Source of the DNA: Candidatus Saccharimonadota bacterium | GTDB lineage: Bacteria; Patescibacteriota; Saccharimonadia; Saccharimonadales; UBA10212 | Direction of reading: 5' to 3' | DNA length: 64,000 nucleotides | Assembly (NCBI GenBank): GCA_016187125.1 | Contig: JACPKF010000002.1 | Span: 1,469 to 65,468 of the forward strand | In this document: positions 8,239 through 52,251 of the stretch, one piece after another | How the letters are laid out: each line of letters begins with the position of its first letter | Position numbering within the stretch: position 1 is the stretch's first letter | Notes under the pieces: model-generated | The model's database searches: none | What the model was told of the DNA's origin: nothing | What the model saw: only the letters and a program-made list of their open reading frames with translations | Program-made: the position numbers and the translations under genes

Positions 8239-8265
8239 CTGCTGCAAGGCTAGGCCTTGCAGCAG
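8239..8265. repeat. perfect 12-bp-stem hairpin (ctgctgcaaggc-tag-gccttgcagcag) beside the RAYT-like gene
   Basis: Read directly; the two arms are exact reverse complements. It lies in the divergent spacer between gmd and the transposase gene. Confidence 0.8.
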
Positions 8266-8291: not shown

Positions 8292-8906
8292 ATGCCCGCT
8301 AAAAATCGAATAAAGATCTATGTGCCAGAGGCTTTTTATCATGTATACAACCGGGGGCTCGACAAACAACTGATCTTTATCGACAATACTGATTATTCTG
8401 TCTTCCTTAGTTTGTTTAAACGATATTTGGCTAATGAAACTGTTAAAGATCCCTCGAGAAGAACCTACGAAAAATTAGCCAACGAAGTAGAACTTCTGGC
8501 CTATTGCCTGATTCCTAACCACTTTCATTTACTTATTTACCAGATTGATTCAATGGGTATGCCAAAACTTGTGCAACGGGTCCTTACTTCATACTCAATG
8601 TATTTCAATAAAAAGTATAAGAGGACTGGACCGTTATTTCAGGATACCTATAGGGCGAGTCAGATCTCTTCGGATGAGTACCTACAACATGTATCACGCT
8701 ATATTCACCTCAACCCTAAAAATTGGCGGCATTGGGACTTTTCAAGTCTAAGATATTATCAGGGCAGTCAAAAAGCCGACTGGATAAATGTAAGCCGTGT
8801 CTTAAGAATTTTTCGTAATAATAAAGAATATTTGGAATTTGTTGCCGATTATGAAGATTATAAAAGATCAATTGATGAAATCAAATACGAATTGGCAGAT
8901 CATTAA
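8292..8906 (+). CDS. IS200/IS605-type Y1 HUH transposase, REP-associated tyrosine transposase (RAYT)-like
   Basis: Motifs YHVYNRG, CLIPNHFHLLI (HUH) and SRYIHLNP (catalytic Tyr region) match the Y1_Tnp/RAYT family. Confidence 0.8.
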   Translation: MPAKNRIKIYVPEAFYHVYNRGLDKQLIFIDNTDYSVFLSLFKRYLANETVKDPSRRTYEKLANEVELLAYCLIPNHFHLLIYQIDSMGMPKLVQRVLTSYSMYFNKKYKRTGPLFQDTYRASQISSDEYLQHVSRYIHLNPKNWRHWDFSSLRYYQGSQKADWINVSRVLRIFRNNKEYLEFVADYEDYKRSIDEIKYELADH

Positions 8907-12935: not shown

Positions 12936-13134
12936 TTTCCACTTTTATCTAACTTTTGTCCACGTTTTTACAGATGAGCGGGCCGGCTGTGTACAACTTT
13001 TCCCTTCTGGGCGTTGGCTGGCTGGGTAGTATAGTAGTTTAGGCATAAGCTGTGGAAAAGCTCGCAATGATCAGCTATATTAAGAACTGCATTGTAAACA
13101 ACCAGGAAGAGTTGAAAGAGGGTTTTAGTCCACA
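12936..13134. other. candidate oriC part 1: DnaA-box cluster upstream of dnaA
   Basis: Boxes close to TTWTNCACA are TTTTCCACT (12936), TTGTACACA (rc of 12988..12996), a perfect TTTTCCACA (rc of 13051..13059) and TAGTCCACA (13126..13134). Confidence 0.55.
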
Positions 13135-14519
13135 TGCAGGAAAATACACTGTGGCAGGCTGTGCTAGGCGAGATTGAGCTTAGTGTTAGTAGAGGCAACT
13201 ATGTAACGTGGTTCAAAAATACCCAACTTATTCGCTATAAAGATGATGTTGCTGTGGTAGGTGTGCCAAACATTTTTGTTAAAAATCAGCTAGAGCGTAA
13301 ATTTAATGACTTAGTAGTTAATATACTTGCCAAAAATGGTATCCAGCCCTCAAGAGTCGAATACAAAATTCACTCCGGCATTGCGCCAACCACCAAACAC
13401 AACGACGAGGGTATTCTGAAAAACCCAGGCGCTATAACAGGTTTATCAGAGGTAAGCACAGGCCCTAAGTTGAGAATAGCTAATGTTACTCACTCTTACC
13501 GCCAAGGTTTAAACGACCGTTATAGTTTCGAGAATTTTGTTGTTGGCGCTGGTAATGAACTGGCCTACGCTGCTTGCCAAGCAATTGCCGGCAGCCCCGG
13601 TACTCGGTACAACCCTCTGTTCATATATGGAGGTGTAGGGATCGGTAAAACTCATTTAATTCAAGCTGTCGGCAGCGCTATTTTGGCAGCCAAACCAAAC
13701 GCTCGCATTATTTACGCTTCAACAGAACAATTTGTCCAAGAATTTGTGGATGCTCTGCGCTTTAAAAAAAATACTACTGATTTTGCTGGATTTTACCGCG
13801 GCGCCGACGTCTTAATTGTTGATGATGTACAGTTTTTGGCAGGCAAAGAAAGAGTTCAGGAAGAATTTTTTCATACTTTCAATGCTCTTTATCAAGCCAA
13901 CAAGCAAATTATTCTAACCAGCGACAAACCACCCAAGGAGATCCCAACCCTAGAGGAACGACTTAGATCGCGCTTTGCCTGGGGTATGTCTATAGATATG
14001 CAAACTCCGGATTTTGAAACCCGTTGCGCCATCCTGCAAAGTAAAGCTGCGATTCAAAACATAAATTTATCCCAGGCCGTAACTGAGCTTTTGGCAACCC
14101 ATATCCACAGTAATATTCGTGAACTAGAGGGAGCTCTAAACCAACTGTTGGCTTACTGCGAAATGAGAGGTGTCGAGCCAGATATTCAGGTTGCAACCGC
14201 CATGTTTGAGAATGTAAAAAACCGGCCAAAACACATTAACGCTCGCCAAATTATTGAAAGAACTGCTAAACATTTTCATGTTTCTATGGAGGATATTTTA
14301 GGACCAAAGCGAGATAAAGATATAGTAGTCCCCCGTCAAATTGCCATGTATATGCTCAGGTGTGAGTTGCATTTGTCTTTTCCCAAAATTGCTCACGAGC
14401 TTGGCCGCAAAGACCACACCACCGCCATTCACTCTATTAATAAGATCGAGAAGGAAACCGGTTTAGACGGCCCCATCAAGCAATATGTCAGTGAGTTGAA
14501 GGAGAAATTATATGTTTAA
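13134..14519 (+). CDS. dnaA: chromosomal replication initiator protein DnaA
   Basis: Walker A GGVGIGKTHL, then VDDVQFL, and a C-terminal DNA-binding helix region (HTTAIHSINKIE). Confidence 0.95.
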   Translation: MQENTLWQAVLGEIELSVSRGNYVTWFKNTQLIRYKDDVAVVGVPNIFVKNQLERKFNDLVVNILAKNGIQPSRVEYKIHSGIAPTTKHNDEGILKNPGAITGLSEVSTGPKLRIANVTHSYRQGLNDRYSFENFVVGAGNELAYAACQAIAGSPGTRYNPLFIYGGVGIGKTHLIQAVGSAILAAKPNARIIYASTEQFVQEFVDALRFKKNTTDFAGFYRGADVLIVDDVQFLAGKERVQEEFFHTFNALYQANKQIILTSDKPPKEIPTLEERLRSRFAWGMSIDMQTPDFETRCAILQSKAAIQNINLSQAVTELLATHIHSNIRELEGALNQLLAYCEMRGVEPDIQVATAMFENVKNRPKHINARQIIERTAKHFHVSMEDILGPKRDKDIVVPRQIAMYMLRCELHLSFPKIAHELGRKDHTTAIHSINKIEKETGLDGPIKQYVSELKEKLYV

Positions 14520-14839: not shown

Positions 14840-15931
14840 ATGAAGCTACAAACTACCCAAGAAAACCTAGCTAAAGCCCTAAACACGGTTGCTAAAGTTG
14901 CTACCACTCGTAACACACTACCAATTCTGGCTAACGTCCTTCTTAAAACAACCAACAATAGATTAAGTATTAGTGCTACTAATTTGGATATTGCCATAAC
15001 CCACACTATTGGTTCAAAAATCGAAAAAACTGGCTCAATTACTGTCCCAGCCCGCTTAATGCAAGATTTTATCTCAAGCCTTCCAGGAGGGGTGCTGCAA
15101 TTAAAACAAGACGACAATAAACTCCACATAACCACCGAAAAATACAACTCCACCATAAATGGAATAAGCGCTGAGGATTTCCCTGTAATGCCAGCCATTA
15201 AAGGTGGTGTAAATTGGAGAATGCCGGCAAGTGAGCTTAGAAAGGGTCTACAAAAAGTAGTACTAGCTGCTAGTAATGATGATGCCCGTCCTATCCTAAC
15301 GGGTGTCTATTTCCATAACCAACCCAACTCGGTCATGGTGGTCGCCACGGATAGTTACAGACTTGCCGAGTACAAACTATCCAAACAAAAGGCGCCAGTA
15401 AACTTTTTAGTGCCATCCACAGCAGCCAGCGACCTCCTAAGAATTATCAGCGATTCTAACCTAGAAGTGTTGATTACCCACGATGAACAACAGGTGCTTT
15501 TTCAATCCGGTGACATAACCTTAGTGGCTCGCTTGATTGAAGGCAATTATCCCGATTATCGTAAACTCATACCGGCTAAGTTTGCGACTGTGGCCAAGCT
15601 TCGCCGTGAAGATTTCATTAATATTGCTAAAGTATCGGCTTTATTCGCCCGCGAAAGCGCCGGCAGTATAACAATTAAAGTCGACGAAAATGACAAAAAA
15701 GTCAGTATTAACGCTGTAGCTTCCCAACTTGGGGAAAACACTGCCACCGCCGATGCCGAAGTTAGGGGCTCTGGTGAAGTAACGCTAAACTCTCGTTATT
15801 TAGTTGAAGCCCTAAACGCCTTTTTTGGCGAGGAGATCGAGCTTTGTTTCAATGGCAAACTAGAACCCTGTATTTTGCGCAGTAGCGACGACGTAAACTA
15901 TTTACACCTAATTATGCCCCTGCGGAGCTGA
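14840..15931 (+). CDS. dnaN: DNA polymerase III beta sliding clamp
   Basis: 363 aa, typical N-terminus (MKLQTTQENLAKALNTV...TLPILANVLL), dnaA-dnaN-recF synteny. Confidence 0.9.
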   Translation: MKLQTTQENLAKALNTVAKVATTRNTLPILANVLLKTTNNRLSISATNLDIAITHTIGSKIEKTGSITVPARLMQDFISSLPGGVLQLKQDDNKLHITTEKYNSTINGISAEDFPVMPAIKGGVNWRMPASELRKGLQKVVLAASNDDARPILTGVYFHNQPNSVMVVATDSYRLAEYKLSKQKAPVNFLVPSTAASDLLRIISDSNLEVLITHDEQQVLFQSGDITLVARLIEGNYPDYRKLIPAKFATVAKLRREDFINIAKVSALFARESAGSITIKVDENDKKVSINAVASQLGENTATADAEVRGSGEVTLNSRYLVEALNAFFGEEIELCFNGKLEPCILRSSDDVNYLHLIMPLRS

Positions 15932-16015: not shown

Positions 16016-17074
16016 ATGATCGAAAATATTCGCTTGCAAAATTTTCGATCATACCACGATGGTTCTTTTGAGTTTGATAAAGGTGTAAATATCGTGGTGG
16101 GCCCCAATGGCAGCGGCAAAACCAATCTTTTAGAAGCCGTGCTGGTTTTAGCAACCGGCAGTTCATTTAGAGCAAAAGACGCGGAGCTTATTGGGTTTGG
16201 CGGATCTTGGGCTCGACTCGATGGCTGGTTCGGACACAGCCAAAGGACGCTTAAAATTATCTTGCAGGGGACCAGCTTGCAAAAAAGCTTTGTAATTGAT
16301 GAAAAGCCATACCGACGCTTAAGCTTGGAACGTAGCCTGCCGGTCGTTTTGTTTGAGCCAAATGACTTACAGCTTTTAGGCCATGGGCCGCAAAGACGCC
16401 GCGATTATTTTGATGATATCTTGCAGCGCACCCAGGCTGGTTATAAATCACTAAACGTCAAATACTACCGGGCTCTGGTTCAGCGCAATGCTCTCCTTAA
16501 ACAACCAGCCGCCGCGGCAGCTCAGCAGATGTTTGCTTGGAATATTCGCTTAAGCGAACTCGGCGCCCAAATTGCCAAGACTCGCCGTCAACTTATCGGC
16601 GATATTAACAAAACTATTGGCGAGACATATAGTAAAATTGCTCACCAAAAAACGGCCGTGAACCTTGTTTATAAATCGCCTTTTAGTGACGCCAATTATT
16701 CCAGTAAACTGCTCTTAAAACTGGAGGCTTCCGCCACACTAGACCTTCAGCGTGGCTTTACGTCGTACGGTCCGCACCGTGAAGACGTCATTATTTACTT
16801 GAGCGATCAAGTTGCTAGTTCTATGGCTTCGCGCGGTGAAACCAGAAGCCTGCTGCTAGCCCTAAAAATATTCGAGTTGCAGTTGTTGCAAAAAGTTCAT
16901 GAGCAAAAACCGATTTTCCTATTGGATGATGTGTTTTCTGAACTTGACGCCGCCCGTCGCCAACACTTAGTCAAGCACCTCAAAGGTTATCAATCGATCA
17001 TTACTACCACCGACGCCGACGCTGTCTTAGAGTACTTCGCCGGCAAGCATAACCTTATACCGTTACAAAAGTAG
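16016..17074 (+). CDS. recF: DNA replication and repair protein RecF
   Basis: Walker A GPNGSGKTNLLEA, signature region SRGETRSLLLALK and Walker B LLDDVFSELD. Confidence 0.9.
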   Translation: MIENIRLQNFRSYHDGSFEFDKGVNIVVGPNGSGKTNLLEAVLVLATGSSFRAKDAELIGFGGSWARLDGWFGHSQRTLKIILQGTSLQKSFVIDEKPYRRLSLERSLPVVLFEPNDLQLLGHGPQRRRDYFDDILQRTQAGYKSLNVKYYRALVQRNALLKQPAAAAAQQMFAWNIRLSELGAQIAKTRRQLIGDINKTIGETYSKIAHQKTAVNLVYKSPFSDANYSSKLLLKLEASATLDLQRGFTSYGPHREDVIIYLSDQVASSMASRGETRSLLLALKIFELQLLQKVHEQKPIFLLDDVFSELDAARRQHLVKHLKGYQSIITTTDADAVLEYFAGKHNLIPLQK

Positions 17075-28628: not shown

Positions 28629-28862
28629 TATATCAGAAGGTCAGTCAACGATTTTTCGGCTAAAAGCTGTTAGCTAACAGCTCATAGCTATTTTCTGCAG
28701 GGTTCTGCAGGGATTGTCCCTGCAAACGGGGGAAATATTGTATAGTATATAGTCTTCGGGTTATTACCTTATTGTTTCCAGGGTGGTACCCTGTAAATGG
28801 GTCTCGGATTTCCAAGATTTCCAAGGACGGTTCTTGGAAAAATGATGGAGTAAATGGATCTC

Positions 28863-29437: not shown

Positions 29438-29480
29438 AATTACATTGTATGTACATAGCCGATAGCTGTCAAGTGTTCTT

Positions 29481-29524
29481 TCAAGGACGGTTCTTGAAGA
29501 TCTTCTTTCAAGAACCGTCCTTGG
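29481..29524. repeat. hairpin made of two inverted copies of CAAGGACGGTTCTTG; a third copy lies at 28821..28837
   Basis: Read directly: tcaaggacggttcttga ... tcaagaaccgtccttgg. Together with the copy at 28821..28837 it brackets the MazEF cassette. Confidence 0.75.
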
Positions 29525-29557
29525 AAGTTTGGTAAATTTCTAATGCTTAATTATGGA

Positions 29558-34888: not shown

Positions 34889-34914
34889 TGTAGATGTTAA
34901 GCATCTAAAAAGAC

Positions 34915-35496: not shown

Positions 35497-35888
35497 CAGC
35501 GCTAGTTTTTGCTTTTGCTAAACTTGTCTCACCGGTCCTGGCGGTTTCCTGCGAGGCCAAAAAATTCTTTTTTTTCCCACCATGGTGGGAATACTTACAG
35601 ACCGGCGATGACGGCGTAGGCGGCTGCAGGCTTATCACCAATGGCTTTCAGTTTGGCGATGTTTTGGCCGTCGGCTTGGCGGTTTTGGACATCTTGCTTA
35701 GAATTGCTGGTTTTGTGGCGGTAATTTCTATAATTTGGGCCGGCGTAAATTATATAACCACCATGGGCAATCCCGAAAAGGCCGCTGCCGCCAGAAAAAG
35801 GATTTACAATTCTTTGATTGGTCTAGCCATTGTCTTTGTAGCCACGGCTCTAGTAACCTTCTTGGGTAATAGTTTAGCGAGCAAATAG
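35493..35888 (+). CDS. VirB2/TrbC-like T4SS pilin paralog 2
   Basis: GTG start overlaps the previous stop (GTGA). The two-TM core is AGVNYITTMGNPEKAAAARKRIYNSLIGLAIV. Confidence 0.65.
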   Translation: MTALVFAFAKLVSPVLAVSCEAKKFFFFPPWWEYLQTGDDGVGGCRLITNGFQFGDVLAVGLAVLDILLRIAGFVAVISIIWAGVNYITTMGNPEKAAAARKRIYNSLIGLAIVFVATALVTFLGNSLASK

Positions 35889-35889
35889 A

Positions 35890-36159
35890 ATGAATGTACT
35901 TGCACAATTGATCAGCGGTGATAACTTACCTAAAACTTCAGACCAAAGTCTAAAGACCGGCCTGACTATTACCTTTTCAGTTATCGGCGCTGTCGGTTTT
36001 TTGTTCTTGGTCATTGCTGGTGTGCGCTACGTTTTTGCCCGCGGTGATACCAACAAACTTGCCGAAGCTAAGAATATGATTCAACATATCATAATCGGCT
36101 TAATTATTGCCGCCTTGGCAGCCTCAATTGTCGCTGTTGTGGTCAGCAGGGTCCAATGA
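35890..36159 (+). CDS. VirB2/TrbC-like T4SS pilin paralog 3 (short, no Cys domain)
   Basis: The two-TM core is AGVRYVFARGDTNKLAEAKNMIQHIIIGLII. Confidence 0.6.
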   Translation: MNVLAQLISGDNLPKTSDQSLKTGLTITFSVIGAVGFLFLVIAGVRYVFARGDTNKLAEAKNMIQHIIIGLIIAALAASIVAVVVSRVQ

Positions 36160-36626
36160 AAAGCCTGACTACATTAAAAATATTTTTGATAAGCCTAGCC
36201 ATGCTTTTAGGCACGTGGGTATTTACGCCGCTGGCTTTAGCTCAAGGCTTTGATCCATTTTGCAGCAAAGTTGATCCCTCTACAGGAAAATGCACTGAAG
36301 GTGTCTGCGTCGGCGAAGCGGCTACCGGCCCGGTCTGTCAACAAAAAAAAGCTCAGCAAACAAAAAAGGATAACCCGGCTATAAGAGTTATCCACACCGC
36401 CACCAACATTTTAGCTCTGGTGGCTGGCGTAGGCGCCGTAATTATTATTATTTATAGCGGCTATGTGTTTGTAACGGCCGGCGGCGCCATAGGCGGCCAA
36501 CGTTCCGGCGATAATCCTACCAGGGCTCGCCAAGCTCGCTCAAGCTTGATCGGAGCTCTTATCGGCCTGATTATCGTGGCTCTTTCTTGGAGCATTATCA
36601 CCTTCTTTACAAATCGGTTACTATAG
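36156..36626 (+). CDS. VirB2/TrbC-like T4SS pilin paralog 4
   Basis: Signal peptide, Cys-containing region and two TM helices. Its start overlaps the previous stop (ATGA). Confidence 0.6.
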   Translation: MKSLTTLKIFLISLAMLLGTWVFTPLALAQGFDPFCSKVDPSTGKCTEGVCVGEAATGPVCQQKKAQQTKKDNPAIRVIHTATNILALVAGVGAVIIIIYSGYVFVTAGGAIGGQRSGDNPTRARQARSSLIGALIGLIIVALSWSIITFFTNRLL

Positions 36627-36630
36627 ACTT

Positions 36631-37077
36631 ATGACTGGCAAAATCAAAAAATTAATACTTCTGACGGTCTTAAGTCTTATCCCAATACTAATTCCCGCTT
36701 CGGCTTTGGCCGCTGTCGACTGCAGCCAGCCCAATTTATCCTCTAAACAGGCCATACAATGCGGCACTCAAGGAGCCAGCGGCAGCGACCAGGATCCCTC
36801 CGCTGCCGGAACCAACATTGATAATACTATCGCCAAATTTGTTAATGTCTTCTCGGTCATAATCGGCGTAATTGCCGTCGTCATGATTATTGTCGGTGGC
36901 TTCCGCTATATTACCAGTGCCGGTAACACCGAAAAGCTGACCCAGGCCAAAAACACTATTATGTATGCAATTATTGGCCTGGTGGTAGTAGCCTTAGCCC
37001 AAGCTATAAGTAGCTTTGTACTATCTAAAACGACCGATTGTGTAAAAGGCAAAACCAGCACCGGCCAAAAGTGCTAA
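36631..37077 (+). CDS. VirB2/TrbC-like T4SS pilin paralog 5
   Basis: GGFRYITSAGNTEKLTQAKNTIMYAIIGLVVVALAQ, a motif shared with paralogs 6 and 7. Confidence 0.7.
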   Translation: MTGKIKKLILLTVLSLIPILIPASALAAVDCSQPNLSSKQAIQCGTQGASGSDQDPSAAGTNIDNTIAKFVNVFSVIIGVIAVVMIIVGGFRYITSAGNTEKLTQAKNTIMYAIIGLVVVALAQAISSFVLSKTTDCVKGKTSTGQKC

Positions 37078-37087
37078 TTGCCATAAG

Positions 37088-37157
37088 CCCAGCACTTAGC
37101 TCCGCGTGCTTCGCAAGTATCTTCCAAAGGAAGATAGTCGCGGAGCTAAGTGCTGGG
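37088..37157. terminator. strong bidirectional hairpin (perfect 19-bp outer stem plus inner hairpin) between convergent genes
   Basis: cccagcacttagctccgcg ... cgcggagctaagtgctggg, with inner hairpin atcttcc-aaa-ggaagat. It lies between pilin 5 and the convergent GIY-YIG gene. Confidence 0.6.
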
Positions 37158-37167
37158 TAAGTAGGGT

Positions 37168-37422
37168 TCACCCCCTGGAATCAGACTTGAGGCGCTTATC
37201 AAGAAACATTTTCCCATAATGCGTCTTGAGATATTTTTCTCTTCGTAACGCATCTTTGTGAGTACGACAAGCTTCATAATAAATCAACTTAAGCGGTCGT
37301 CGATAAACTGTTGATGTCACGAGGCCCTTTTGGTGAGACTCAAGTCTGGCTTGTAAATCTGGAGTACAGCCTATGTAGTGTTTGCGGTCTTTAACACTGT
37401 ACAAAACATATGTGTAATACAT
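37168..37422 (-). CDS. GIY-YIG nuclease family protein
   Basis: YYTYVLYSVKDRKHYIGCTPDLQARLESHQKG...ALRREKYLK matches GIY-YIG/URI motifs. It lies antisense within the pilin array. Confidence 0.8.
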   Translation of the reverse strand: MYYTYVLYSVKDRKHYIGCTPDLQARLESHQKGLVTSTVYRRPLKLIYYEACRTHKDALRREKYLKTHYGKMFLDKRLKSDSRG

Positions 37423-37451
37423 AGCTTATATTTTACGAGCATTCCAGGGGG

Positions 37452-37479
37452 TTGACTAAACTATAACCACGTATATACT
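37452..37479 (+). promoter_or_regulatory. candidate sigma70-type promoter (TTGACT-N16-TATACT) for pilin paralogs 6-7
   Basis: Read by eye; located ~40 nt upstream of the ATG at 37518. Confidence 0.35.
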
Positions 37480-37517
37480 TATGCTTATAAAATGAAAATA
37501 ACAAAGGAAATCTAAAA

Positions 37518-37946
37518 ATGCTTCAAAAAATAAAAACTTTAATTATGTCTTTGTCGCTGCTCTTTGCTTTTGCTGCGCCTGTTTCTCTGCCGGTTGCTGT
37601 TTCGGCTGTATCACCCGATGTTCAAAAAAGTGTTTGTGAGGGCGCTAAAAAACTACAAATTTCCCCTGATAATCCCACTGGCGAACCATGTGCAGAAGAT
37701 ACAGATGGTGGTGGCACTACTAAAGTAAATCTTCTCTTGCAAAAAATCATCAATATTTTCTCAGTAATTGTCGGCGTAGTAGCCGTCGTCATGATCATCT
37801 GGGGCGGCTTCAAGTATATAACCAGCGGCGGTACCTCCGAGAAAGTGACTACTGCCAAAAACACCATTCTATACGCGCTTATTGGTCTGATCATTGTGGC
37901 CTTGGCTCAAATAATCGTCCGCTTCGTACTAGCAAAATCCACTTAA
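37518..37946 (+). CDS. VirB2/TrbC-like T4SS pilin paralog 6
   Basis: GGFKYITSGGTSEKVTTAKNTILYALIGLIIVALAQ, with a signal peptide and a Cys pair. Confidence 0.7.
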   Translation: MLQKIKTLIMSLSLLFAFAAPVSLPVAVSAVSPDVQKSVCEGAKKLQISPDNPTGEPCAEDTDGGGTTKVNLLLQKIINIFSVIVGVVAVVMIIWGGFKYITSGGTSEKVTTAKNTILYALIGLIIVALAQIIVRFVLAKST

Positions 37947-37991
37947 ACTTTCTATTCCCGCGTTGGCTTAGCCACTGCTATACTTACTAGC

Positions 37992-38402
37992 GTGAAATAC
38001 TTGTCTAGCTTTGCCCTTATCTTGAGTGTATGGCTGGTTATGGCCTTGGGCCAGGCACCGCCGGTTTTTGCTCAGAATGGCCAGCAACAAATCAACCGAG
38101 GCTTATGCGCCGGCGCCAATTTGCAGTTCACCGAAGGCGGTGCCAGCTGCCAAGGCGGAGATGATGCCACCGCCAAGTTTAATCAAATCATTAAGGTTGT
38201 TATTAATCTGCTGTCAGTCATCGTCGGCATAGTTGCCGTCATCATGATTATTGTCGGCGGCCTGCGCTATATTACCAGTGGCGGTAGCGACACCAGTGTT
38301 ACCAGTGCCAAAAACACCATTCTTTACGCTGTTATTGGCTTGATTATCGTCGCCCTCGCCCAAGTATTAGTCCGCTTTGTCCTTCGCAAAATTACCCAAT
38401 AG
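37992..38402 (+). CDS. VirB2/TrbC-like T4SS pilin paralog 7
   Basis: GTG start; GGLRYITSGGSDTSVTSAKNTILYAVIGLIIVALAQ. Confidence 0.7.
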   Translation: MKYLSSFALILSVWLVMALGQAPPVFAQNGQQQINRGLCAGANLQFTEGGASCQGGDDATAKFNQIIKVVINLLSVIVGIVAVIMIIVGGLRYITSGGSDTSVTSAKNTILYAVIGLIIVALAQVLVRFVLRKITQ

Positions 38403-42257: not shown

Positions 42258-42395
42258 GTAATGAGACAAAACCAATGGTTTTTTCTCATCAGACCTGACG
42301 AAATGAATTCGTCTCCGCTAATAGCGGATCGGTCCGGCTCTTTTTCCTCTATACATCTTAAAGCCCTAAATGGTAAAATAACCCCTGTTCTTACC

Positions 42396-43756: not shown

Positions 43757-44020
43757 AAATACTCTTCTTTATTTATATCATTAAAAATTATTTATCAAGC
43801 TCTAGTTTAGCATCATTCTAAAAAAAAGTCAATCAGCTATCCCTGAACCTCAAAACCTCCGTCAAAGTCCATCGCCCAAGGTACAACTCATCCGTTGTTT
43901 ACAAGTTGTTTACAAGGAGCCTCCTTGTAAACGGCAAAAATATTGTCTAATAAATTATGTTTTGAGATTCAGGTAGCTATGGCTTAAATAAGAACTCTGA
44001 ATTGGTATTATAGAAAATGC

Positions 44021-45232
44021 ATGTTAAAAAGCGCTCACAATTTGGTTAAAAGTGTTGGTAAAAAGCTGAAGCTTGACGATGCGACCGTAGAAAAGCTTCT
44101 GAAGGCGGACGCGGAGCACCAGTTTGAAATTAGTTTGAAAAGTGGGAAGCAGTTTAAGGCTTACCGTGTCCAGCATAGCAATAAACTAGGCCCCTATAAA
44201 GGCGGAATCAGATTCCATCCTCGGGTGAATCTGGATGAAATAAGAACTCTGGCAACTTTAATGAGTCTTAAAACTGCCGCTGTGGGGCTGCCGCTTGGTG
44301 GCAGCAAAGGCGGCGTGACGGTGGATCCAAAGGTACTTACTCAAGACGAACTCGAGGAACTAAGTCGTAAGTATGTACAGCACCTGCAATCTCATATAGG
44401 ACCGGCTAAAGACGTCCCTGCTCCTGATGTAAATACCAATGCCCAAATCATGGATTGGATGATTGACGAATACCAAAATCTGACTGGCAACCTGAGCCAG
44501 GCTAGTTTTACCGGTAAAAGTCTGACTAGTGGCGGCAGTGAAGGCCGTGATGAAGCCACCGGCCGCGGCGGCGTAATTGCCCTGCGCGAACTCCTTATGC
44601 TACAAGGATTATCCTTGCAGCATAAGGGGGATCAGGTATTGCGTTTTGCCGTTCAGGGATTTGGCAATGTGGGTTCGAATTTTGCAATCGTCGCTGAGCA
44701 GGAGCAGCCCAACTGGAAGTTAATTGCCGCCAGTGATTCTGGTGCCACTATTTTTGACTCAGAAGGACTTAGTGCCTCTAGTCTGGCGGCCTTTAAAAAA
44801 CAAGCTGGCCGCTTTAGCCAGTACAAAAATGCTCAAGTCCTAAACAGTGACGCAATATTGTTCCTGGAAGTTGATGTTTTGGTCCTAGCGGCCCTGGAGG
44901 ATGCCATAACAAATAAGAACATGCAGCAGGTTAAGGCCCGACTTATCGTTGAGCTAGCCAATGGGCCGATTAACGAAACCGCCTATGGTTACTTGGCCAA
45001 AAAAGGCATAACTGTTTTACCGGACATTATCACCAATGCCGGAGGCGTTATTGTAAGTTATTTGGAGTGGCTACAAAATAAGGCTGATGAGCGTTGGACG
45101 CGCGCCAAAGTTAACACCGAGCTAGAACAGTACATGATTAAAGCCATAAGCGAGGTTTATAAAACTTCTAGTTCACAAAATCTGACACTCAAAGAAGCGG
45201 CAATTATGCTAGCTCTCAAACGCCTGACTTAA
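44021..45232 (+). CDS. gdh: Glu/Leu/Phe/Val dehydrogenase family (glutamate dehydrogenase-like)
   Basis: Catalytic region KGGIRFHP...LPLGGSKGG and the Rossmann motif AVQGFGNVG. Confidence 0.85.
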   Translation: MLKSAHNLVKSVGKKLKLDDATVEKLLKADAEHQFEISLKSGKQFKAYRVQHSNKLGPYKGGIRFHPRVNLDEIRTLATLMSLKTAAVGLPLGGSKGGVTVDPKVLTQDELEELSRKYVQHLQSHIGPAKDVPAPDVNTNAQIMDWMIDEYQNLTGNLSQASFTGKSLTSGGSEGRDEATGRGGVIALRELLMLQGLSLQHKGDQVLRFAVQGFGNVGSNFAIVAEQEQPNWKLIAASDSGATIFDSEGLSASSLAAFKKQAGRFSQYKNAQVLNSDAILFLEVDVLVLAALEDAITNKNMQQVKARLIVELANGPINETAYGYLAKKGITVLPDIITNAGGVIVSYLEWLQNKADERWTRAKVNTELEQYMIKAISEVYKTSSSQNLTLKEAAIMLALKRLT

Positions 45233-45393
45233 ACAATGTTCGATGTCTCATAGAATAAGGCGAGACCAAAAGCAATGCAGTATTGCTATTTATTTGCTAC
45301 AAGGATAATCCTTGTAGCAAATCTTGTAGCAAATAAATAGTCTCTAGACTACTGACGGAGAGTGCTTTTACAGTTAATAAATTTAGTAGTCTG

Positions 45394-46530
45394 TTATTGG
45401 ATGATGATCTTTTTCGTAGGCTTCTTTTTTGGCTTTGGGGCTGGAGCCCGTGGTATAGTCTCTGGTTTCGTGACAGCCGCGGGAGTCTCAACCGGTTGCT
45501 CTTTATCCGAGGTTGGCTCGGAACGTTGCGACTTCCCTTTGCCTAAAACCATCGGACCAGCAATGGCTAAGACACCCAGAGCAGCATATGTACCGCCAAA
45601 AATATAGTAAGTTTTGTTTATGTTAGCTATGATGTCGGCGGCCAAGGTTGTTATTGTTTCCTGCATAGCCTTATTCTCTATCTTCAGCTGCGGCAGTAGC
45701 TTTTTATTAACACCCCAGTTCAGGGTGTAGGCCGAGATTAGTAAGAAGACGCCAATGGTAGTAAGTGTGACGCCTAAACGGCGCAATCCCCGTGTCCGGC
45801 TGGCGCTCAGGAAGATTATGCCAAGGGCGGTTAACAGACTCAAAAGTGCCAAATAAAGCGGTGTCTTTTTAACCTGCTGATAATAGTTTGGTACGTCTTT
45901 TAGCTGGTCGGCAAAAACCGATTGGCTAGAGCCTGATAACTTAACAATGTCGGCTGTGATAACCGGGTCTTTTAAGAAGCCCTCGCTGCTGCTCAAGCTG
46001 TTTCGTATTTGCTCGGCTACGCTGGCTGGCGTTGTACCTTTGGGCAAACAAGTGGCGCTGAACGGTTCATATGAATCGGCGCTGCCAGATAATCCCGCCG
46101 GACAAGCAGGCAGCGTAGCGGCCCGGGCCTGAGCTGCCTTGGCGGTTTCGGTGGCAAAGGTCTCTTTGAGTCCGGATAAGTCAAGCTTAAAGTCAGGCAC
46201 CTTTGTCTTACCATCCAGCCATAAAAAGACACTATCTAGTACTTTTTCGGTGTTTTCCTGCAAAAACTGGGGTGTAAAAGTTTTTTCGGCTACCGCTTTA
46301 ATGTTTGGATCGGTCAGAGAGATTCCTTCACCTTCCCCACCAGAAGTCTTAACCTGATCCAGGGTACTGGAGATTAGGGAATTATAAATGTCGCTGTCAG
46401 ACAGAAACTTTTTTATATTCCCAGAGCTGCCGGCCGTGCGGATAATACCGGTGTCTATAGCCAGCGTAAACAAAAAAAGCGGCAATATAAGCGCCAAAAA
46501 AAACACTAAAGTCTTCCGCACAAAACGCAT
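45394..46530 (-). CDS. membrane protein, function unknown
   Basis: 378 aa with an N-terminal TM segment, C-terminal TM segments and a Lys/Pro-rich tail. Confidence 0.55.
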   Translation of the reverse strand: MRFVRKTLVFFLALILPLFLFTLAIDTGIIRTAGSSGNIKKFLSDSDIYNSLISSTLDQVKTSGGEGEGISLTDPNIKAVAEKTFTPQFLQENTEKVLDSVFLWLDGKTKVPDFKLDLSGLKETFATETAKAAQARAATLPACPAGLSGSADSYEPFSATCLPKGTTPASVAEQIRNSLSSSEGFLKDPVITADIVKLSGSSQSVFADQLKDVPNYYQQVKKTPLYLALLSLLTALGIIFLSASRTRGLRRLGVTLTTIGVFLLISAYTLNWGVNKKLLPQLKIENKAMQETITTLAADIIANINKTYYIFGGTYAALGVLAIAGPMVLGKGKSQRSEPTSDKEQPVETPAAVTKPETIPRAPAPKPKKKPTKKIIIQ

Positions 46531-48541: not shown

Positions 48542-49408
48542 TTGGGTAGTGTTACCAATGAAACAGAATTGGGTAAAAAATTGCAGCTGGCTCGCAAACG
48601 TGCCGGCTTAACCCAACAACAGCTATGCCAAAAAGCCGGTCTGTCTTATTCAACCCTGGCCAAAATCGAACGCGGCGCTATTCGTTCCCCCTCGGTATTT
48701 ACGGTTGCCTCCATAGCCAGCGCCACTAGTACGCCTTTAGAAGACCTGCTTGATTTAGATACCCAAAGTGGCGGCTCCCCTGCCCCGCCGAACGCCAAAA
48801 AACGCTCCAAAACCGGAATCAGATTTGTTTATTTTGATATTGACGGCGTTTTGATAAGGTTTGTTATGCACGCCTTTCCTAAAATAGCTCGGGACCACGG
48901 GCTTCAACCAGACGTCGTCGAAAATGCTTTTTGGCGTCACAACGACTCGGTTTGCAGGGGGGATATTAGCCTGGAAGAGTTTAACTCAGTCGTTGGCCAA
49001 GAGCTCGGCATAAGCGGCTTCAGTTGGCTAAAATATTATTTTGAATCAGCCGAACCAACTCCCGGAGCCATCGATTTTTTGAAATGGGCAGCCCAACACT
49101 ACGACGTCGGCCTTATCAGCAACCATATGCCCGGTGAGACCGAAGAGTTATTCAAACGCCAGATTATCCCTGAGCTGGACTTTAAAACCGTGGTTGATTC
49201 TTGCAAGGTGGGAGCTGTCAAGCCAGAGGCCAAAATTTATGAAACCGCCACTGAGCTGGCAGCCGCTACGCCACCAGAAATTCTGTTGATTGACGATAAC
49301 CGGACCAATTTAACGGCTGCCGACCGTGCCGGCTGGCAAATATCCTGGTTTGACCAGTTTCAACCGGCCGAGAGTATCGAGCGGGCCAAAGCTCAGCTGG
49401 AGTTTTAA
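48542..49408 (+). CDS. fusion protein: N-terminal XRE-type HTH domain plus C-terminal HAD-superfamily hydrolase domain
   Basis: HTH region LGKKLQLARKRAGLTQQQLCQKAGLSYSTLAKIERG. HAD motifs are FDIDGV (I), LISNH (II), K-containing (III) and LIDDNRTN (IV). Confidence 0.7.
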   Translation: MGSVTNETELGKKLQLARKRAGLTQQQLCQKAGLSYSTLAKIERGAIRSPSVFTVASIASATSTPLEDLLDLDTQSGGSPAPPNAKKRSKTGIRFVYFDIDGVLIRFVMHAFPKIARDHGLQPDVVENAFWRHNDSVCRGDISLEEFNSVVGQELGISGFSWLKYYFESAEPTPGAIDFLKWAAQHYDVGLISNHMPGETEELFKRQIIPELDFKTVVDSCKVGAVKPEAKIYETATELAAATPPEILLIDDNRTNLTAADRAGWQISWFDQFQPAESIERAKAQLEF

Positions 49409-52251
49409 ATATTTTTGACAGCTGTTTGGAAAGCCGCGATTTCGTGTTTGATAGCTTCTAAAAGTTGCTGCTCTTCGACTAATTGAGTTTTTGTTTGTTT
49501 GACTAATTCCTTCGGCGCTTTTTGAGTGTAAGATTTGTTAGATAGGCGCTTTTGCAGCAGCTTTATGGCGGCTTCTCGCGCCTTTTGGGAGGTTTTTAGC
49601 CGGCCTAAGTAGGCTTGAGCGGTTTCCCGGTCAATGTCCAGCCAAGCGGCGTATTTAGTGCCGGTTAGTCGTAAGCCCTTAGCTGCTTTAGCTTCTTTTA
49701 CCTGGCTTAAGCGTCCTAAACTTTTGACTAATTCTTTATTTTCATCAATCAGCGGCGCGGCTTTATAAAACAGCGCCGGTTTAGTAACACCAACATTGGC
49801 GGCTATTTGCCTGGACTGGGTAATAATTTCTTGGAGCTCTTTGAATTGGCTAACCTTAGCTAGATCAACTTTCTGAAATTTTGGCCAAAGCTGCGAGGCC
49901 AGCAAACTCTCCTTTTCCAAGGCCAGGCCTTGGAAAAGGTTTTTATCCTGAGCAGAGTCGCCCATTCGACCTTGCTCAGGGCGGTCCTGCCCATTCGACG
50001 AGTTCAGGGCAGCCTTAGTGTTAATCGAAGGCTGAGTTTTGTCGAACGGATCGAAGGATTGCCAGATGGTTTCGGTAACAAATGGAGCAAATGGGTGGGC
50101 TATTTTTAGAGTTGATTTAAGCACGAAGGCCAGCACTTCTCTGTTGGGCGTTGTTTTGCTGACTTCTACGTACCAGTCGGCAAAATCATCCCAAACAAAA
50201 TGGTACAGCGCGTCATAAGCTTCGCTGAAACGGAAATTATCCAAGTCCTCAGAAACAGCCCTCGCCGCAATACTTAACTTGTTAAGTATCCAATGATCGG
50301 CAACCGATTTTGGCATAACACTACCCCTGTTATGACCTAAGGGTACGACCCTTAGACTTCTTCTACCTATGTTGTTCTCCTCGCCCTCTAAGGGTCGTAC
50401 CCTTAGGTCGTCTATGTAGCGGGCGATGTTCCAGAGCTTGTTAACAAAATTACGGTTGGCTACGATCTTTGACTTTCTTACTCGCTGGTCAGTTCCTGGA
50501 GAAGTGCCGGCTATCAAAGCCAAGCGCAGAGCGTCAGTGCCGTATTCATTTATAACTCCAACTGGATCAACGATGCTGTCTGGATCACTTTTGCTCATTT
50601 TCTTGCCGGTTTCTGTCCGCACTAGGCCATGCAGATAAACGGTTTTAAATGGTACTCGGCCAGTAACATAAGTAGTGGCTAGAATCATTCGGGCAACCCA
50701 GAAAAAGAGAATTTCATAAGCTGTTTCTAAGACATCAGTCGGGTGGTAAGTTTGATAGTCAATACTTTTGGCTAAAAGATCATCCAGCGATAGCGAAAAG
50801 TCCTTTGTCAGTTCTGGATCGACTAAGGTGCTCCAGGTCCAAAGCGCCGAGGAAAACCAGGTATCCAGCGTGTCCGGATCTTGCTGCCAGCCCTCTTCCT
50901 GCGGCGGCCTAACGCCTACATAAACACTGTCTTTGCTGTGGACCGCGGACTGTGGACTGTGGACTGATTCCTGTCTGTACCACACCGGAATCTGATGTCC
51001 CCACCAGATTTGACGGCTGATGCACCAGTCCCGCAGATTATCAATCCAGTGGTAGTAAATTTTCTCGAACCGTTTAGGCACAATCTTAATATCGCCATCT
51101 TCAATAACAGCTCTCATGACTTCCTTGAGGCTGCGTTTTTGACCCTTCCAATCTACCGCCGGCCGGTTGACATCAATAAACCATTGCAGTTTGATTTGTG
51201 GTTCAATAACACCTTTGCCGCGGCTATTTAAAGCGATGTTATGGGTGTATGTCTTGTCAATGCTGACCAATAAATTTTTCTGACGCAATTTTTCCACAAT
51301 TTTAGGCCGGGCTTCATCTATTTTTATAGCTTCGAATTCGCCGGCGATAGCTAAAAGCTTTCCATCAAAATCAATAATTTGTTCTTTTTCCAGACCGTGC
51401 CGCTCGGCGATTTCAAAGTCAGTGCGGTCGTGCCACGGCGTGATGGTCATCACCCCTGTTCCAAAGGCTGGGTCCACGGCCTCGTCTTTAATAATGGTGG
51501 CGGTAACTGGGCCATTGATCCATTCACATTCAAAAGTGTCGCCGGTTTTATATTGAGCGTAGCGTTTGTCACCGGGATGCATAACGACGTATTTGTCGCC
51601 AAACTTGGTTTCGGGACGGGCCGTGCTTATCTTAAAAGGGCCGTACTGTAAGGTGTAAAGTGGCGACTCCTCTTCTTTGTAAATAACTTCATCGTCAGAA
51701 ACCGTAGTTTCCAGATTGGGGTCCCAATTAACTATCCGATGGCCCCTGTAAATTAGCCCGTCTTGGTACATTTTTATAAAGACTTCGTTAACGCAACGGT
51801 TAAGTGCCTCGTCTAAGGTGTATCGCAGCCGGCTCCAATCGGCGCTGGCGCCCATAGCCCGCATTTGCTTAAGCATTGTACCTCTGTTACGATCGGCAAA
51901 CTCCTTGACCTTGGCAACAAAGGCTTCGCGGCCCAGTTCGTGTTTATTGGTCCCCTGCTCTGCCAGTTGTCGCTCAACTACAGAATTTGTAGCAATCGCT
52001 GCGTGGTCGGTTCCCGGTAACCAGAGAGCGTCGTAACCCACCTGGCGCGCATGCCTGATTAGAATGTCTTGAAGCGTTATGAATAATGCCCCGCCAAGGT
52101 GGAGGGTGGATGTTTCATTGGGGGGTGGCATGGCTATAGAGAAATGAGGTTTGGAGCTACTCGGATCAGCTATAAAGACGCCGCTCTTCTCCCAAAGGGC
52201 ATAAATATCGGCTTCATAATCACCTGCAACATAGGCTTTAGGTAATCCCAT
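49405..52251 (-). CDS. valS: valine--tRNA ligase carrying several repeat-derived in-frame insertions
   Basis: PPPNETSTLHLGGA (HIGH region with an HLGG variant), LWLPGTDHAAIAT, KMSKS (GKKMSKSD) and a C-terminal coiled coil; 948 aa. Confidence 0.9.
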   Translation of the reverse strand: MGLPKAYVAGDYEADIYALWEKSGVFIADPSSSKPHFSIAMPPPNETSTLHLGGALFITLQDILIRHARQVGYDALWLPGTDHAAIATNSVVERQLAEQGTNKHELGREAFVAKVKEFADRNRGTMLKQMRAMGASADWSRLRYTLDEALNRCVNEVFIKMYQDGLIYRGHRIVNWDPNLETTVSDDEVIYKEEESPLYTLQYGPFKISTARPETKFGDKYVVMHPGDKRYAQYKTGDTFECEWINGPVTATIIKDEAVDPAFGTGVMTITPWHDRTDFEIAERHGLEKEQIIDFDGKLLAIAGEFEAIKIDEARPKIVEKLRQKNLLVSIDKTYTHNIALNSRGKGVIEPQIKLQWFIDVNRPAVDWKGQKRSLKEVMRAVIEDGDIKIVPKRFEKIYYHWIDNLRDWCISRQIWWGHQIPVWYRQESVHSPQSAVHSKDSVYVGVRPPQEEGWQQDPDTLDTWFSSALWTWSTLVDPELTKDFSLSLDDLLAKSIDYQTYHPTDVLETAYEILFFWVARMILATTYVTGRVPFKTVYLHGLVRTETGKKMSKSDPDSIVDPVGVINEYGTDALRLALIAGTSPGTDQRVRKSKIVANRNFVNKLWNIARYIDDLRVRPLEGEENNIGRRSLRVVPLGHNRGSVMPKSVADHWILNKLSIAARAVSEDLDNFRFSEAYDALYHFVWDDFADWYVEVSKTTPNREVLAFVLKSTLKIAHPFAPFVTETIWQSFDPFDKTQPSINTKAALNSSNGQDRPEQGRMGDSAQDKNLFQGLALEKESLLASQLWPKFQKVDLAKVSQFKELQEIITQSRQIAANVGVTKPALFYKAAPLIDENKELVKSLGRLSQVKEAKAAKGLRLTGTKYAAWLDIDRETAQAYLGRLKTSQKAREAAIKLLQKRLSNKSYTQKAPKELVKQTKTQLVEEQQLLEAIKHEIAAFQTAVKNI
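50336..50407. mobile_element. 72-bp MITE-like element with perfect 20-bp terminal inverted repeats, inserted in frame in valS
   Basis: cctaagggtacgacccttag ... ctaagggtcgtacccttagg are exact reverse complements. 72 nt is 24 codons, which encode LRVRPLEGEENNIGRRSLRVVPLG in a variable part of ValRS. Confidence 0.65.

Follow-up and report, generated by a model that had tools for sequence, protein, structure and literature searches.

The gdh gene of a Saccharibacteria genome carries, within its reading frame, a 35-nt palindrome that is probably a member of a REP-like hairpin family; this family occupies mostly intergenic DNA of a single Saccharibacteria lineage and accompanies a RAYT-like Y1 transposase. 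The analysis covered a 64-kb stretch of DNA (the window), and the features on which the argument turns are collected in Table 1.

Table 1. Features of the 64-kb window that bear on the gdh palindrome
Feature	Coordinates	Strand	Description or basis
Transposase-side hairpin	8239..8265	.	family hairpin CTGCTGCAAGGC TAG GCCTTGCAGCAG, 27 nt upstream of the transposase ATG
Y1 transposase gene	8292..8906	+	IS200-like Y1 (HUH) transposase, RAYT-like, 204 aa; Pfam PF01797, 42.8 bits (cut-off 23)
Hairpin array	28694..28842	.	three family hairpins between two toxin-antitoxin modules (TA genes by Pfam)
E1	28694..28726	.	array member with tandem left arm
E1b	28775..28797	.	near-identical to L001:6535-6559
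E2	28808..28840	.	tandem left arm; near-identical to L001:700-722
Inverted doublet	29478..29527	.	type-A units, REPIN/BIME-like; 21-bp arms, 8-nt spacer, upstream of mazE
E3	43894..43935	+	upstream family element; tandem left arm TTGTTTACAAG, then hairpin GTTTACAAGGAGCCTCCTTGTAAAC (43908..43932)
gdh	44021..45232	+	Glu/Leu/Phe/Val dehydrogenase (glutamate/leucine-type), 403 aa, intact; ORF, Pfam PF02812 and PF00208
gdh palindrome	44593..44627	+	intragenic, REP-like, 35 nt; 17-bp arms, 1-nt centre, in frame in gdh
LSLQH insertion	44609..44623	+	15 extra nt, TTA TCC TTG CAG CAT = LSLQH (TTATCCTTGCAGCAT); protein alignment, spacing counts, codon alignment
E4	45286..45340	+	downstream family element; hairpin 45292..45322 with perfect 15-bp arms
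ValRS linker	49906..50055	-	50 residues, ETIWQS to LLASQLWP; linker lengths compared
valS copy	49911..49939	-	intragenic family copy within the valS frame, CCTTTTCCAAGGCC.GGCCTTGGAAAAGG; peptide NLFQGLALEKE

The palindrome, CCTTATGCTACAAGGATTATCCTTGCAGCATAAGG, had been described beforehand as near-perfect and in the gdh frame, and both points hold. Its 17-nt arms (44593-44609 and 44611-44627) are 94% complementary, with 16 of 17 positions paired, and lie in frame in the 403-aa ORF, where they encode residues L191..G203 (LLMLQGLSLQHKG). The sole mismatch, A:C at 44602/44618, avoids an in-frame TAG, since a perfect palindrome would read TCC TTG TAG CAT and thereby stop translation. RNA folding gives -25.6 kcal/mol against -8.8 +/- 2.2 in shuffles, and -19.8 kcal/mol for the intragenic gdh palindrome of a second genome, L001. 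Shuffle controls rule out a chance origin of the palindromes. An assembly artefact is ruled out by the presence of P0001 on three contigs (NCBI, Logan) and by the identical coding of P0003, the GDH of L001, in L001-L003, which come from three different ENA/JGI samples.

The window GDH aligns over its full length with 2tmg (T. maritima GDH), and its AlphaFold model has a pLDDT of 90.4. The preliminary description held that the protein is extended at the palindrome relative to typical GDHs, and spacing counts agree: ATGxGG and QGFGNVG are separated by 22 residues in 160 of 165 Saccharibacteria orthologs and by 27 only in the window protein and P0003, the extra residues in the window being LSLQH. 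These are placed in the coil between helix 176-194 and strand 207-212, ahead of the Rossmann strand, and stand opposite a gap in the 2tmg alignment. The same description had pointed out that orthologs with the peptide and no palindrome would speak for conserved protein sequence; the palindrome-free orthologs also lack the peptide, and the sole ortholog that does have it likewise has a palindrome. A conserved peptide that forces the palindrome is thus ruled out, the more so as random synonymous codons for the same peptides give only 8.6 to 9.6 (about 9) pairs out of 17. The two genomes with the insertion are also the two with the hairpin family. By GDH identity the window and L001 are not nearest neighbours; a neighbour-joining tree of GDH gave no resolution to their status as sisters, and a search for close relatives of P0003 found none. 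The insertion may be one ancient event or two independent events. Elsewhere, L085 has other palindromes within coding sequence, in gdh (10745-10777) and in tsaD, that bring no change in length, and L018 has a perfect 16-nt palindrome within an insertion of eight residues in the same GDH loop.

The hairpin family exists and is lineage-restricted. Its core reads T.CARGG-N5-CCYTG.A, with covarying outer stems, in units of 23-35 nt whose stems span 10-17 bp. Seven exact copies of CARGG-N5-CCYTG occur in the window against 0.29 expected, and three more with one mismatch bring the total to ten at six loci in 64 kb, eight of which fall within the non-coding 12% of the window. Under a relaxed motif (at least 8 of 12 stem pairs), density per 10 kb is 1.25 in the window and 1.41 in L001, where three family copies lie in 21 kb; the same motif was absent from 162 kb of 17 other Saccharibacteria loci and from 57 kb of four closer gdh relatives, and was found once in 600 kb of other phyla. 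In a set of 25 members, pairing is seen in 91% of stem cells versus 74% in shuffles, changes have occurred on both sides at 8 of 12 stem pairs, and there is little or no variation at the core positions T.CA.G / C.TG.A. A given hairpin type hardly differs between the window, L001 and other metagenome contigs, and its flanks there are unrelated; the family alignment has no conserved flank beyond the stem, the foot is TTT/AAA, and GTAG/CTAC is present only within the stem of the gdh sub-type. Different hairpin types are also arrayed together in another contig (L100 1676-2030), and two family loci lie between divergent gene starts. Scans of viral contigs for the family returned background only, and an Rfam search gave only tRNAs at gathering scores.

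Several other identities for the family were considered and set aside. Intrinsic terminators are ruled out by the lack of U-tracts and by the copies that lie between divergent starts; no terminator-like site was called on either strand at E3, the gdh coding-sequence (CDS) copy or E4, where the tails are A-rich or mixed. The type-A hairpin is not an operator specific to the toxin-antitoxin module, as only in the window and L100 does it have mazEF as a neighbour. A DNA uptake sequence is unsupported, the half-motif TTTNCARGG being rare outside hairpins. Integron attC sites, CRISPR and tRNA arrays, suggested by the hairpin spacing of about 70 nt, were dismissed by eye, because neighbouring units differ and core sites are missing.

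Two family members flank gdh itself. The E4 hairpin, ATTTGCTACAAGGATAATCCTTGTAGCAAAT, begins 60 nt past the gdh stop (TAA, 45230-45232), and the stops of gdh and of a convergent ORF (45394..46530) face each other across the element. Its right arm, CTTGTAGCAAAT, is present as a tandem duplicate (45311-45322 and 45323-45334), so that an 18-bp outer stem (45286-45303 / 45323-45340) can form instead. A recount of the 27-mers returned the 23 of 27 identities with the gdh palindrome that had been noted earlier. When the CAAGGA-N3-TCCTTG pattern from the preliminary description was searched for in the 64-kb window, three exact matches were obtained, all at gdh (43913, 44603 and 45300), against an expectation of 0.12 even allowing one mismatch. 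The first of these belongs to E3, a third gdh copy that the first reading had missed, as it had the remainder of the family; E3 lies upstream, in a divergent intergenic region, 89 nt ahead of the gdh ATG, and is the mirror image of E4. A further contig has the E3 hairpin type as well (L105:16, ATTTACAAGGAGGCTCCTTGTAAAT). On the + strand, folding yields z-scores of -4.2 for E3, -7.7 for the CDS copy and -8.3 for E4.

Comparison of these copies bears on the earlier proposal that a hairpin was copied into the coding sequence or out of it. As inverted repeats, the 25-nt cores of the CDS copy (44598-44622) and of E4 (45295-45319) are 96% complementary, that is, they match at 24 of 25 positions; the orthologous CDS copies of the window and L001 have 17 of 25 positions in common. 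The window CDS copy therefore has a far closer match in E4 than in its L001 ortholog, which supports that proposal.

The hairpin beside the transposase gene ties the gdh copies to a candidate mobilizing enzyme. This hairpin, the CDS copy and E4 form one sub-type, GCTRCAAGG-N5-CCTTGYAGC, which has exactly three matches in the window (8241, 44599 and 45296) versus 0.14 expected. The protein, annotated by NCBI as 'transposase', contains an HUH motif (NHFHLLI) and a tyrosine motif (SRYIHLNP), and NHFHLLI and RYIHLNP are conserved in three homologs. NCBIfam lists a single match for it, NF047646 (REP-associated tyrosine transposase), whose 43 bits fall short of the cut-off of 80, and the only PDB match of a three-sequence profile is a weak one to 4er8, E. 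coli TnpArep (E = 0.63); a single-sequence AlphaFold model was too poor for use (pLDDT 49). The gene is present in one copy within the 64-kb window, and no family hairpin was seen downstream of it. Hairpins accompany the homologs as well: in L111 a type-A hairpin lies about 27 nt upstream, in L016 five AAGACNGTCTT units flank the gene on both sides, and in L078 three copies of a hairpin are present, one 20 nt upstream of the homolog, one within the matched region and one past its far end. With a multi-copy, mostly extragenic palindrome family and one member 27 nt upstream of a Y1 transposase gene, the label REP-like, already given to the hairpin in the preliminary description, is supported.

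The window holds a second in-frame copy, in valS, which has the type-A arms TTTCCAAGG. It lies in a ValRS linker that is much shorter in two other genomes (7 residues in L085 and 18 in L001), and the linker region is predicted to fold into three to four hairpins (-68.5 kcal/mol, z = -4.9).

We propose that the Y1 transposase spread the repeats in trans by acting on single-stranded hairpins, as has been suggested for E. coli REP/BIME, and that local amplification or gene conversion may have followed. The gdh copy would have persisted because it entered in frame, shed its stop codon and occupies a permissive surface loop; sister copies could have kept it symmetrical by converting it repeatedly, or selection could have acted on the hairpin.

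The length of the insertion calls for a further step in this reading. The net gain of 15 nt is less than the whole 23-27-nt unit, so that a simple insertion of the whole element would have to be coupled to a deletion, which counts against it; an inverted duplication in place accounts for the 15 nt directly. A local template switch, which we regard as unlikely, would have made the 15 nt as an in-place inverted duplication of the preceding 12 nt with no mobile element, through replication that was hairpin-primed or switched strands where a CTT...AAG micro-palindrome already existed; the likeness to E4, E3 and other members would then be secondary, arising from later conversion or from a CDS copy that seeded the flanks. 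The nucleotides that encode LSLQH do supply the loop and repeat, in inverted form, the ATGCTACAAGGA ahead of them: the insert is the reverse complement of ATGCTGCAAGGATAA, it directly follows ATGCTACAAGGA, and it fits in length without an extra deletion. The MLQG before it aligns with the xHLG of orthologs, the G being conserved, and the L085 palindromes without length change and the L018 palindrome at the same loop are also in keeping with such a switch. Quasi-palindrome template-switch mutations in E. coli are reportedly the subject of work by Ripley and by Lovett; such events are isolated, point-like mutations without a repeat family. The gdh insertion resembles them as an inverted copy of adjacent sequence that turned a short inverted repeat into a long palindrome, but its arms match those of a dispersed, transposase-linked family. 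A template switch leaves unexplained why the family core is common to copies tens of kilobases away, including the transposase-side one, why the insertion is limited to the two family-bearing genomes, and why a second in-frame copy with type-A arms lies in valS.

The origin of the palindrome as a repeat-family member can be separated from the question of what has maintained it. Between the window and L001, third-position identity is 41%, yet the palindrome is kept in L001 with four compensated pair changes (P about 2e-4). Under random synonymous codons, the probability of at least the observed number of pairs is 7.5e-5 in the window and 7e-4 in L001. Compensated stems in the same GDH loop of two distant genomes, together with a forced, stop-avoiding mismatch, bear on selection versus concerted evolution of REP hairpins. 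On the side of selection, the gdh hairpin and its mirror-image neighbours E3 and E4 (690 and 697 nt away) could be a co-opted three-site module that controls gdh, with symmetry kept by selection and not by conversion; we consider this distinctly unlikely. Such a module may act as RNA or be a binding site for the Y1 protein or some host factor, and if it is real, domesticated REPs would serve as gene-internal regulators in a reduced CPR genome.

Also improbable is a selected mRNA structure of incidental REP origin, in which the gdh hairpin delays ribosomes where the NAD domain begins, serves as a site of processing or base-pairs with the copy in the 3' UTR, although it is compatible with the repeat-family explanation as a later co-option. 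Codon choice tuned to pairing in both genomes beyond the demands of the peptide, with the four compensated pairs, is consistent with it, as are the strength of the predicted hairpin in both genomes and the 25-bp duplex, with one mismatch, that the CDS core and E4 could form. Nevertheless, 160 of the 165 orthologs manage without the hairpin, recurrent conversion from sister copies would give the same compensation without selection, and there is no slippery site or U-tract near the palindrome. Finally, it is very doubtful that the three TACAAGGA-N3-TCCTTG(T/C)A palindromes are operators for a dimeric, DNA-looping gdh regulator with the family as its regulon: three exact sites surround one gene at centre-to-centre distances of 690 and 697 nt, E3 sits in the divergent promoter region and the T.CA.G / C.TG.A core is all but invariant, but the changes in the L001 palindrome are compensatory and not conservative, L001 has no flanking gdh sites, the length of the stems (11-17 bp) and the covariation of their outer positions favour a folded strand over a duplex half-site, family copies neighbour unrelated genes in different genomes, and no regulator gene is evident beside gdh.

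A REP-like origin of the gdh palindrome would add Saccharibacteria to the hosts of REP/RAYT systems and of palindromic inserts in frame, both of which have been described chiefly in Proteobacteria and Rickettsia; the very small and tightly packed genomes of this phylum are where persistent selfish repeats are least expected. It also suggests that lineage-specific inserts in housekeeping proteins of such metagenome-assembled genomes may be repeat-derived and not functional innovations. No report of REP/RAYT in Saccharibacteria was found in the literature searched.

RAYT genes are bordered by REPs, and transposition or recombination, with local amplification afterwards, may account for the spread of BIMEs (PMC3333891). 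Like the REP/BIME (REPIN) and RAYT (TnpA-REP, 'REPtron') systems of E. coli, Pseudomonas and others (PMC3333891, PMC3337134, PMC5581495), the window family consists of short, multi-copy, mainly extragenic palindromes. It shares with them the occurrence of several sequence types in one genome, an inverted doublet, mixed-type arrays (28694..28842 in the window; L100) and a Y1/HUH gene preceded or flanked by its cognate hairpin, with lineage-specific sequences (window, L111, L016 and L078). Near-identical window copies are clustered locally, as in the local amplification of BIMEs. The differences are also clear. Three reports (PMC3333891, PMC3733652, PMC6006769) describe REPs with a GTAG or CGTC tetranucleotide 5' of a G/C-rich foot; the window family has neither tetranucleotide in that position, and its foot is A/T-rich (TTT...AAA). 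Its stems are nearly perfect, unlike the substrates of E. coli TnpA-REP, which needs a stem mismatch, and one arm is tandem-duplicated at four window elements. The transposase is divergent from RAYTs (43 bits against the NCBIfam cut-off of 80) and has a C-terminal extension within its 204 aa, and the host is a Saccharibacteria (CPR) bacterium.

Intragenic members have precedents in two reports, on intragenic REPs (Di Nocera et al. 2013, PMC3733652) and on in-frame Rickettsia palindromic elements, or RPEs (PMC1779305). The window palindromes are similar in lying in frame inside conserved genes, in adding residues to proteins that stay intact and in being common to related genomes and missing from outgroup orthologs; an aminoacyl-tRNA synthetase is affected in both settings, PheT in Rickettsia and ValRS in the window. 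RPEs as presented there are sequence families of Rickettsiales, a different host, and measure 100-150 bp with no identified transposase, whereas the gdh palindrome is 35 nt with a net gain of 15 nt. The excerpts from PMC3733652 and PMC1779305 make no mention of hairpin symmetry kept by compensation across genomes. In the former, the terminal TAG of GTAG REPs is often a stop codon for flanking ORFs; in the window intragenic copies the TAG has instead been changed to CAG or GAG. The hairpin family and the transposase are probably a REP/RAYT-like system with intragenic copies, a known sort of selfish DNA.

The preliminary description had reported a near-perfect palindrome within gdh, a matching hairpin just downstream and a GDH that looked extended before its Rossmann motif, and each of these points held. 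The core CAAGGA-N3-TCCTTG has three exact matches in 64 kb, every one at gdh, compared with 0.12 expected; the observation is therefore genuine and chance is ruled out. The palindrome has 17-nt arms with 16 of 17 positions paired around one central base, and its folding energy as RNA is -25.6 kcal/mol, compared with -8.8 +/- 2.2 in shuffles. The 25-nt cores of this CDS copy and of E4, the downstream element, share 92% identity as direct repeats and 96% complementarity as inverted repeats. The exact GDH protein is present in NCBI under Candidatus Saccharibacteria.

Among the 165 Saccharibacteria orthologs, 160 have 22 residues between ATGxGG and QGFGNVG; solely the window GDH and one other protein, P0003, have 27. 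By codon alignment the extra residues are LSLQH (TTA TCC TTG CAG CAT, 44609..44623). Gaps near this segment sum to five residues in the alignment with T. maritima GDH (2tmg), and an AlphaFold model (pLDDT 90.4) places the insert in a coil that follows helix 176-194 and precedes the first Rossmann strand (207-212). The 15 inserted nucleotides consist of a loop and an inverted copy of the preceding 12 nt. The sole stem mismatch, A at 44602 against C at 44618, falls precisely where a perfect palindrome would give TCC TTG TAG, an in-frame stop; E4 carries TCCTTGTAG at the matching position. The net gain could reflect a unit whose insertion cost a few codons, or an inverted duplication made locally with the gene or a nearby unit as template. 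Separately, the same loop has eight additional residues in L018 (a CPR MAG), holding the perfect 16-nt palindrome TCCGCCAGCTGGCGGA, and four in L016, with a quasi-palindrome; L016 also carries, 1.4 kb downstream of its gdh, a RAYT-like gene.

A conserved peptide encoded without any palindrome had been the envisaged counter-reading, and the sole other insert-bearing ortholog, P0003 on contig L001, proved to be palindromic in its DNA as well. Its gene holds GCTTCTGCTACAGGGTC T GACCCTTGAGCATAAGC at the equivalent place, with 14 of 17 pairs formed and GAG at the would-be stop codon. DNA identity between the two genes is 66%, and 41% at third codon positions; between their palindromes, four stem pairs are changed on both sides with pairing intact (P about 2e-4, permutation test). 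When the same peptides were recoded with random synonymous codons, a mean of 8.6-9.6 pairs formed, and the observed pairing was reached with P = 7.5e-5 (window) and 7e-4 (L001). The nucleotide sequence therefore retains more symmetry than the peptide demands, and either conversion or selection may maintain it. By neighbouring proteins L001 is closest to the window among the contigs compared, with the membrane protein adjoining gdh 46% identical (36-41% for others), and gene order (gdh - membrane protein - ... - HTH/HAD - valS) is retained in both. The two are not paired by GDH identity alone. A single, ancient insertion offers the simpler explanation, but a permissive or targeted site may have received two separate ones.

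The gdh hairpins belong to a wider family. Its core, CARGG-N5-CCYTG, has seven matches in the window compared with 0.29 expected; three more copies with one mismatch bring the total to ten, eight of which are intergenic although the window is 88% coding. Two loci lie between divergent gene starts, and no canonical terminator was called at the upstream element E3, the CDS copy or E4. Among 25 members, chosen by motif and pairing so that the figures are biased towards structure, 91% of stem positions were paired (shuffles, 74%); changes on both sides occurred at 8 of 12 stem pairs, and T.CA.G / C.TG.A was invariant or nearly so. Four hairpins have one arm exactly duplicated in tandem ([L][L]loop[R]; period 9-12 nt), and at ~1820-1865 of L100 one hairpin is preceded by three partial left arms.

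Features of the window and of related contigs
Feature	Position	Strand	Remarks
Y1_Tnp (IS200-like) ORF, 204 aa	8292..8906	+	Pfam 42.8 bits, cut-off 23
Family hairpin	8239..8265		5' of Y1 transposase gene
Array, three family hairpins	28694..28842		between two toxin-antitoxin modules
Inverted doublet of family units	29478..29527		upstream of mazE
gdh, Glu/Leu/Phe/Val dehydrogenase, 403 aa	44021..45232	+	ORF and domain search
Family copy E3, GTTTACAAGGAGCCTCCTTGTAAAC	43908..43932		89 nt 5' of gdh start
Family copy in gdh (CDS copy), CCTTATGCTACAAGGATTATCCTTGCAGCATAAGG	44593..44627	+	in frame; encodes LLMLQGLSLQHKG
Family copy E4, ATTTGCTACAAGGATAATCCTTGTAGCAAAT	45292..45322		starts 60 nt past gdh stop codon; perfect 15-bp arms
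valS	49405..52251	-	holds in-frame CCTTTTCCAAGGCC.GGCCTTGGAAAAGG, read NLFQGLALEKE
Family copy in valS	49911..49939		
Tandem-arm elements	43894-43935, 45286-45340, 28694-28726, 28808-28840		
AGCT-rich repeats	27955-28040, 28665-28682, 54393-54410, 57982-58004; L001:19653-19687		
P0003 gene	L001 (groundwater contig)		identical copies in contigs of two other samples, L002 and L003
Y1 homolog	L111		type-A hairpin about 27 nt upstream
Y1 homolog	L016		five AAGACNGTCTT units on both sides
Y1 homolog	L078		hairpin 20 nt upstream; further copies inside matched region (one) and past far end (one)

The family also occurs on L001, where L001:700-722 (TTTCCAAGAACGGTTCTTGGAAA) matches window 28818-28840 and L001:6535-6559 matches 28775-28800. 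Individual hairpin types are near-identical, centre bases included, despite the distance between the two genomes. In metagenomes, a scan for the L001:700-722 type yielded 22 contigs, several with further recurrent hairpin types alongside and unrelated flanks. The family was not found in 162 kb from 17 other Saccharibacteria loci, nor in 57 kb from four contigs whose GDH is without the insert (64-65% identical to that of the window; that of L086 71% identical to P0003), and it occurred once in the 600 kb searched from other phyla. A second, separate family of AGCT-rich palindromic repeats (AGCTGTTAGCTAACAGCT and relatives) is intergenic in the window and L001.

That the hairpins are REP-like was borne out by a Y1 transposase gene adjoining a family member, an arrangement repeated in its homologs. 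The sole NCBIfam match listed for the ORF, REP-associated tyrosine transposase (RAYT), scored 43 bits and fell short of the equivalog cut-off (80). A three-sequence profile matched one PDB chain only, E. coli TnpArep 4er8, and weakly (E = 0.63); by eye, we take PEHMHC and YIYINP of 4er8, within the aligned stretch, to be counterparts of the HUH and tyrosine motifs. The hairpin CTGCTGCAAGGC TAG GCCTTGCAGCAG ends 27 nt ahead of the transposase ATG, and GCTRCAAGG-N5-CCTTGYAGC matches exactly three window sites, namely this hairpin, the CDS copy and E4, which form one sub-type. Homologs on other contigs each have their own hairpins. The RAYT-like gene at L111:1291-1581, beside a hairpin of type A (that of the doublet upstream of mazE), is apparently disrupted after about 75 residues, with stops following; no HUH motif was found in it, and it may be a decaying copy.

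As inverted repeats, the CDS copy and E4 agree at 24 positions of the 25-nt core, whereas the window CDS copy and its L001 ortholog agree at only 17. The CDS copy and the adjoining downstream site have therefore exchanged sequence recently, in keeping with the earlier proposal of copying into or out of gdh. E4 could have been copied out of gdh, or the gene copy could have been overwritten from an E4-type unit. The E3 hairpin type is also present on another contig (L105:16), and E3 is therefore an ordinary family member, not a gene derivative. By analogy with E. coli work, the Y1 protein would act on the folded single strand and would spread units in trans, together with local amplification. 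The hairpin centres (43920 for E3, 44610 for the CDS copy, 45307 for E4) place the CDS copy midway, at 690 and 697 nt, between elements of mirror-image orientation. This position could reflect a three-site arrangement or could be a coincidence, put post hoc at roughly 1 in 100.

A second intragenic copy lies in valS, within the linker from ETIWQS to LLASQLWP, which is 50 residues long in the window, 18 in L001 and 7 in L085. Folding gave three or four hairpins in the window insert, and L001 valS has a different palindrome, with 17-bp arms, at the equivalent place. The three copies in gdh and valS encode peptides with a common pattern, (L/F)QGLxL(Q/E); it corresponds to the core CAA GGN NTN NCC TTG translated in one frame. 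Long in-gene palindromes may be generally common in Saccharibacteria; the family-free genome L085 has them at 10745-10777 (gdh) and 16786-16817 (tsaD), the former encoding KLAGFKEAGQR at unchanged length, a peptide conserved in several orthologs.

Several other palindromes and loci were observed. The origin region (12560-15931) contains what we take, from reading the sequence rather than from a family search, to be rpmH (-), dnaA (13134..14519) and dnaN (14840..15931). DnaA-box-like repeats follow dnaA, and a large inverted repeat, GAGGTCTGTCCTTGTAAAAAA ... TTTTTTACAAGGACAGACCTC, spans 12805-12885 with the octamers TACAAGGA/TCCTTGTA inside in opposite order. A palindrome with 15-bp arms (16016-16052) starts exactly at the ATG of ORF 16016..17074. 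The type IV secretion cluster (23758-38402) encodes a TraG/VirB4-like ATPase, PrgI and seven paralogous T4SS pilins. Its continuity is broken by the toxin-antitoxin modules ParE/Phd and MazEF and by a small GIY-YIG gene (37168..37422). Between a 1702-aa gene and the pilin cluster, positions 34705-34740 form a perfect 36-nt palindrome, CATAACAAAATCCAGCGATCGCTGGATTTTGTTATG. L100 shows synteny with the window at mazEF and at the large membrane protein. The hairpin ATGAGACA...TTTCTCAT occurs in three distant genomes (window 42261-42289, L085:4888-4914 and L001:17551-17576), matched no Rfam family at the gathering score, and could belong to an unannotated RNA or be a conserved terminator.

The literature searched yielded no account of REP/RAYT or palindromic repeats from Saccharibacteria. 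The REPtron arrangement, REPs together with their RAYT gene, has been described in E. coli and others (PMC3333891; PMC3337134), and the window Y1 gene with its hairpin, like its homologs, presents the same picture. REPs within genes are documented (PMC3733652), and Rickettsia palindromic elements lie in frame in genes, one aminoacyl-tRNA synthetase included (PMC1779305). Four traits set the present family apart from described REPs: neither the GTAG/CGTC tag nor a G/C-rich foot is present, the stems are close to perfect, four elements have one arm in tandem duplicate, and the host belongs to a different phylum.
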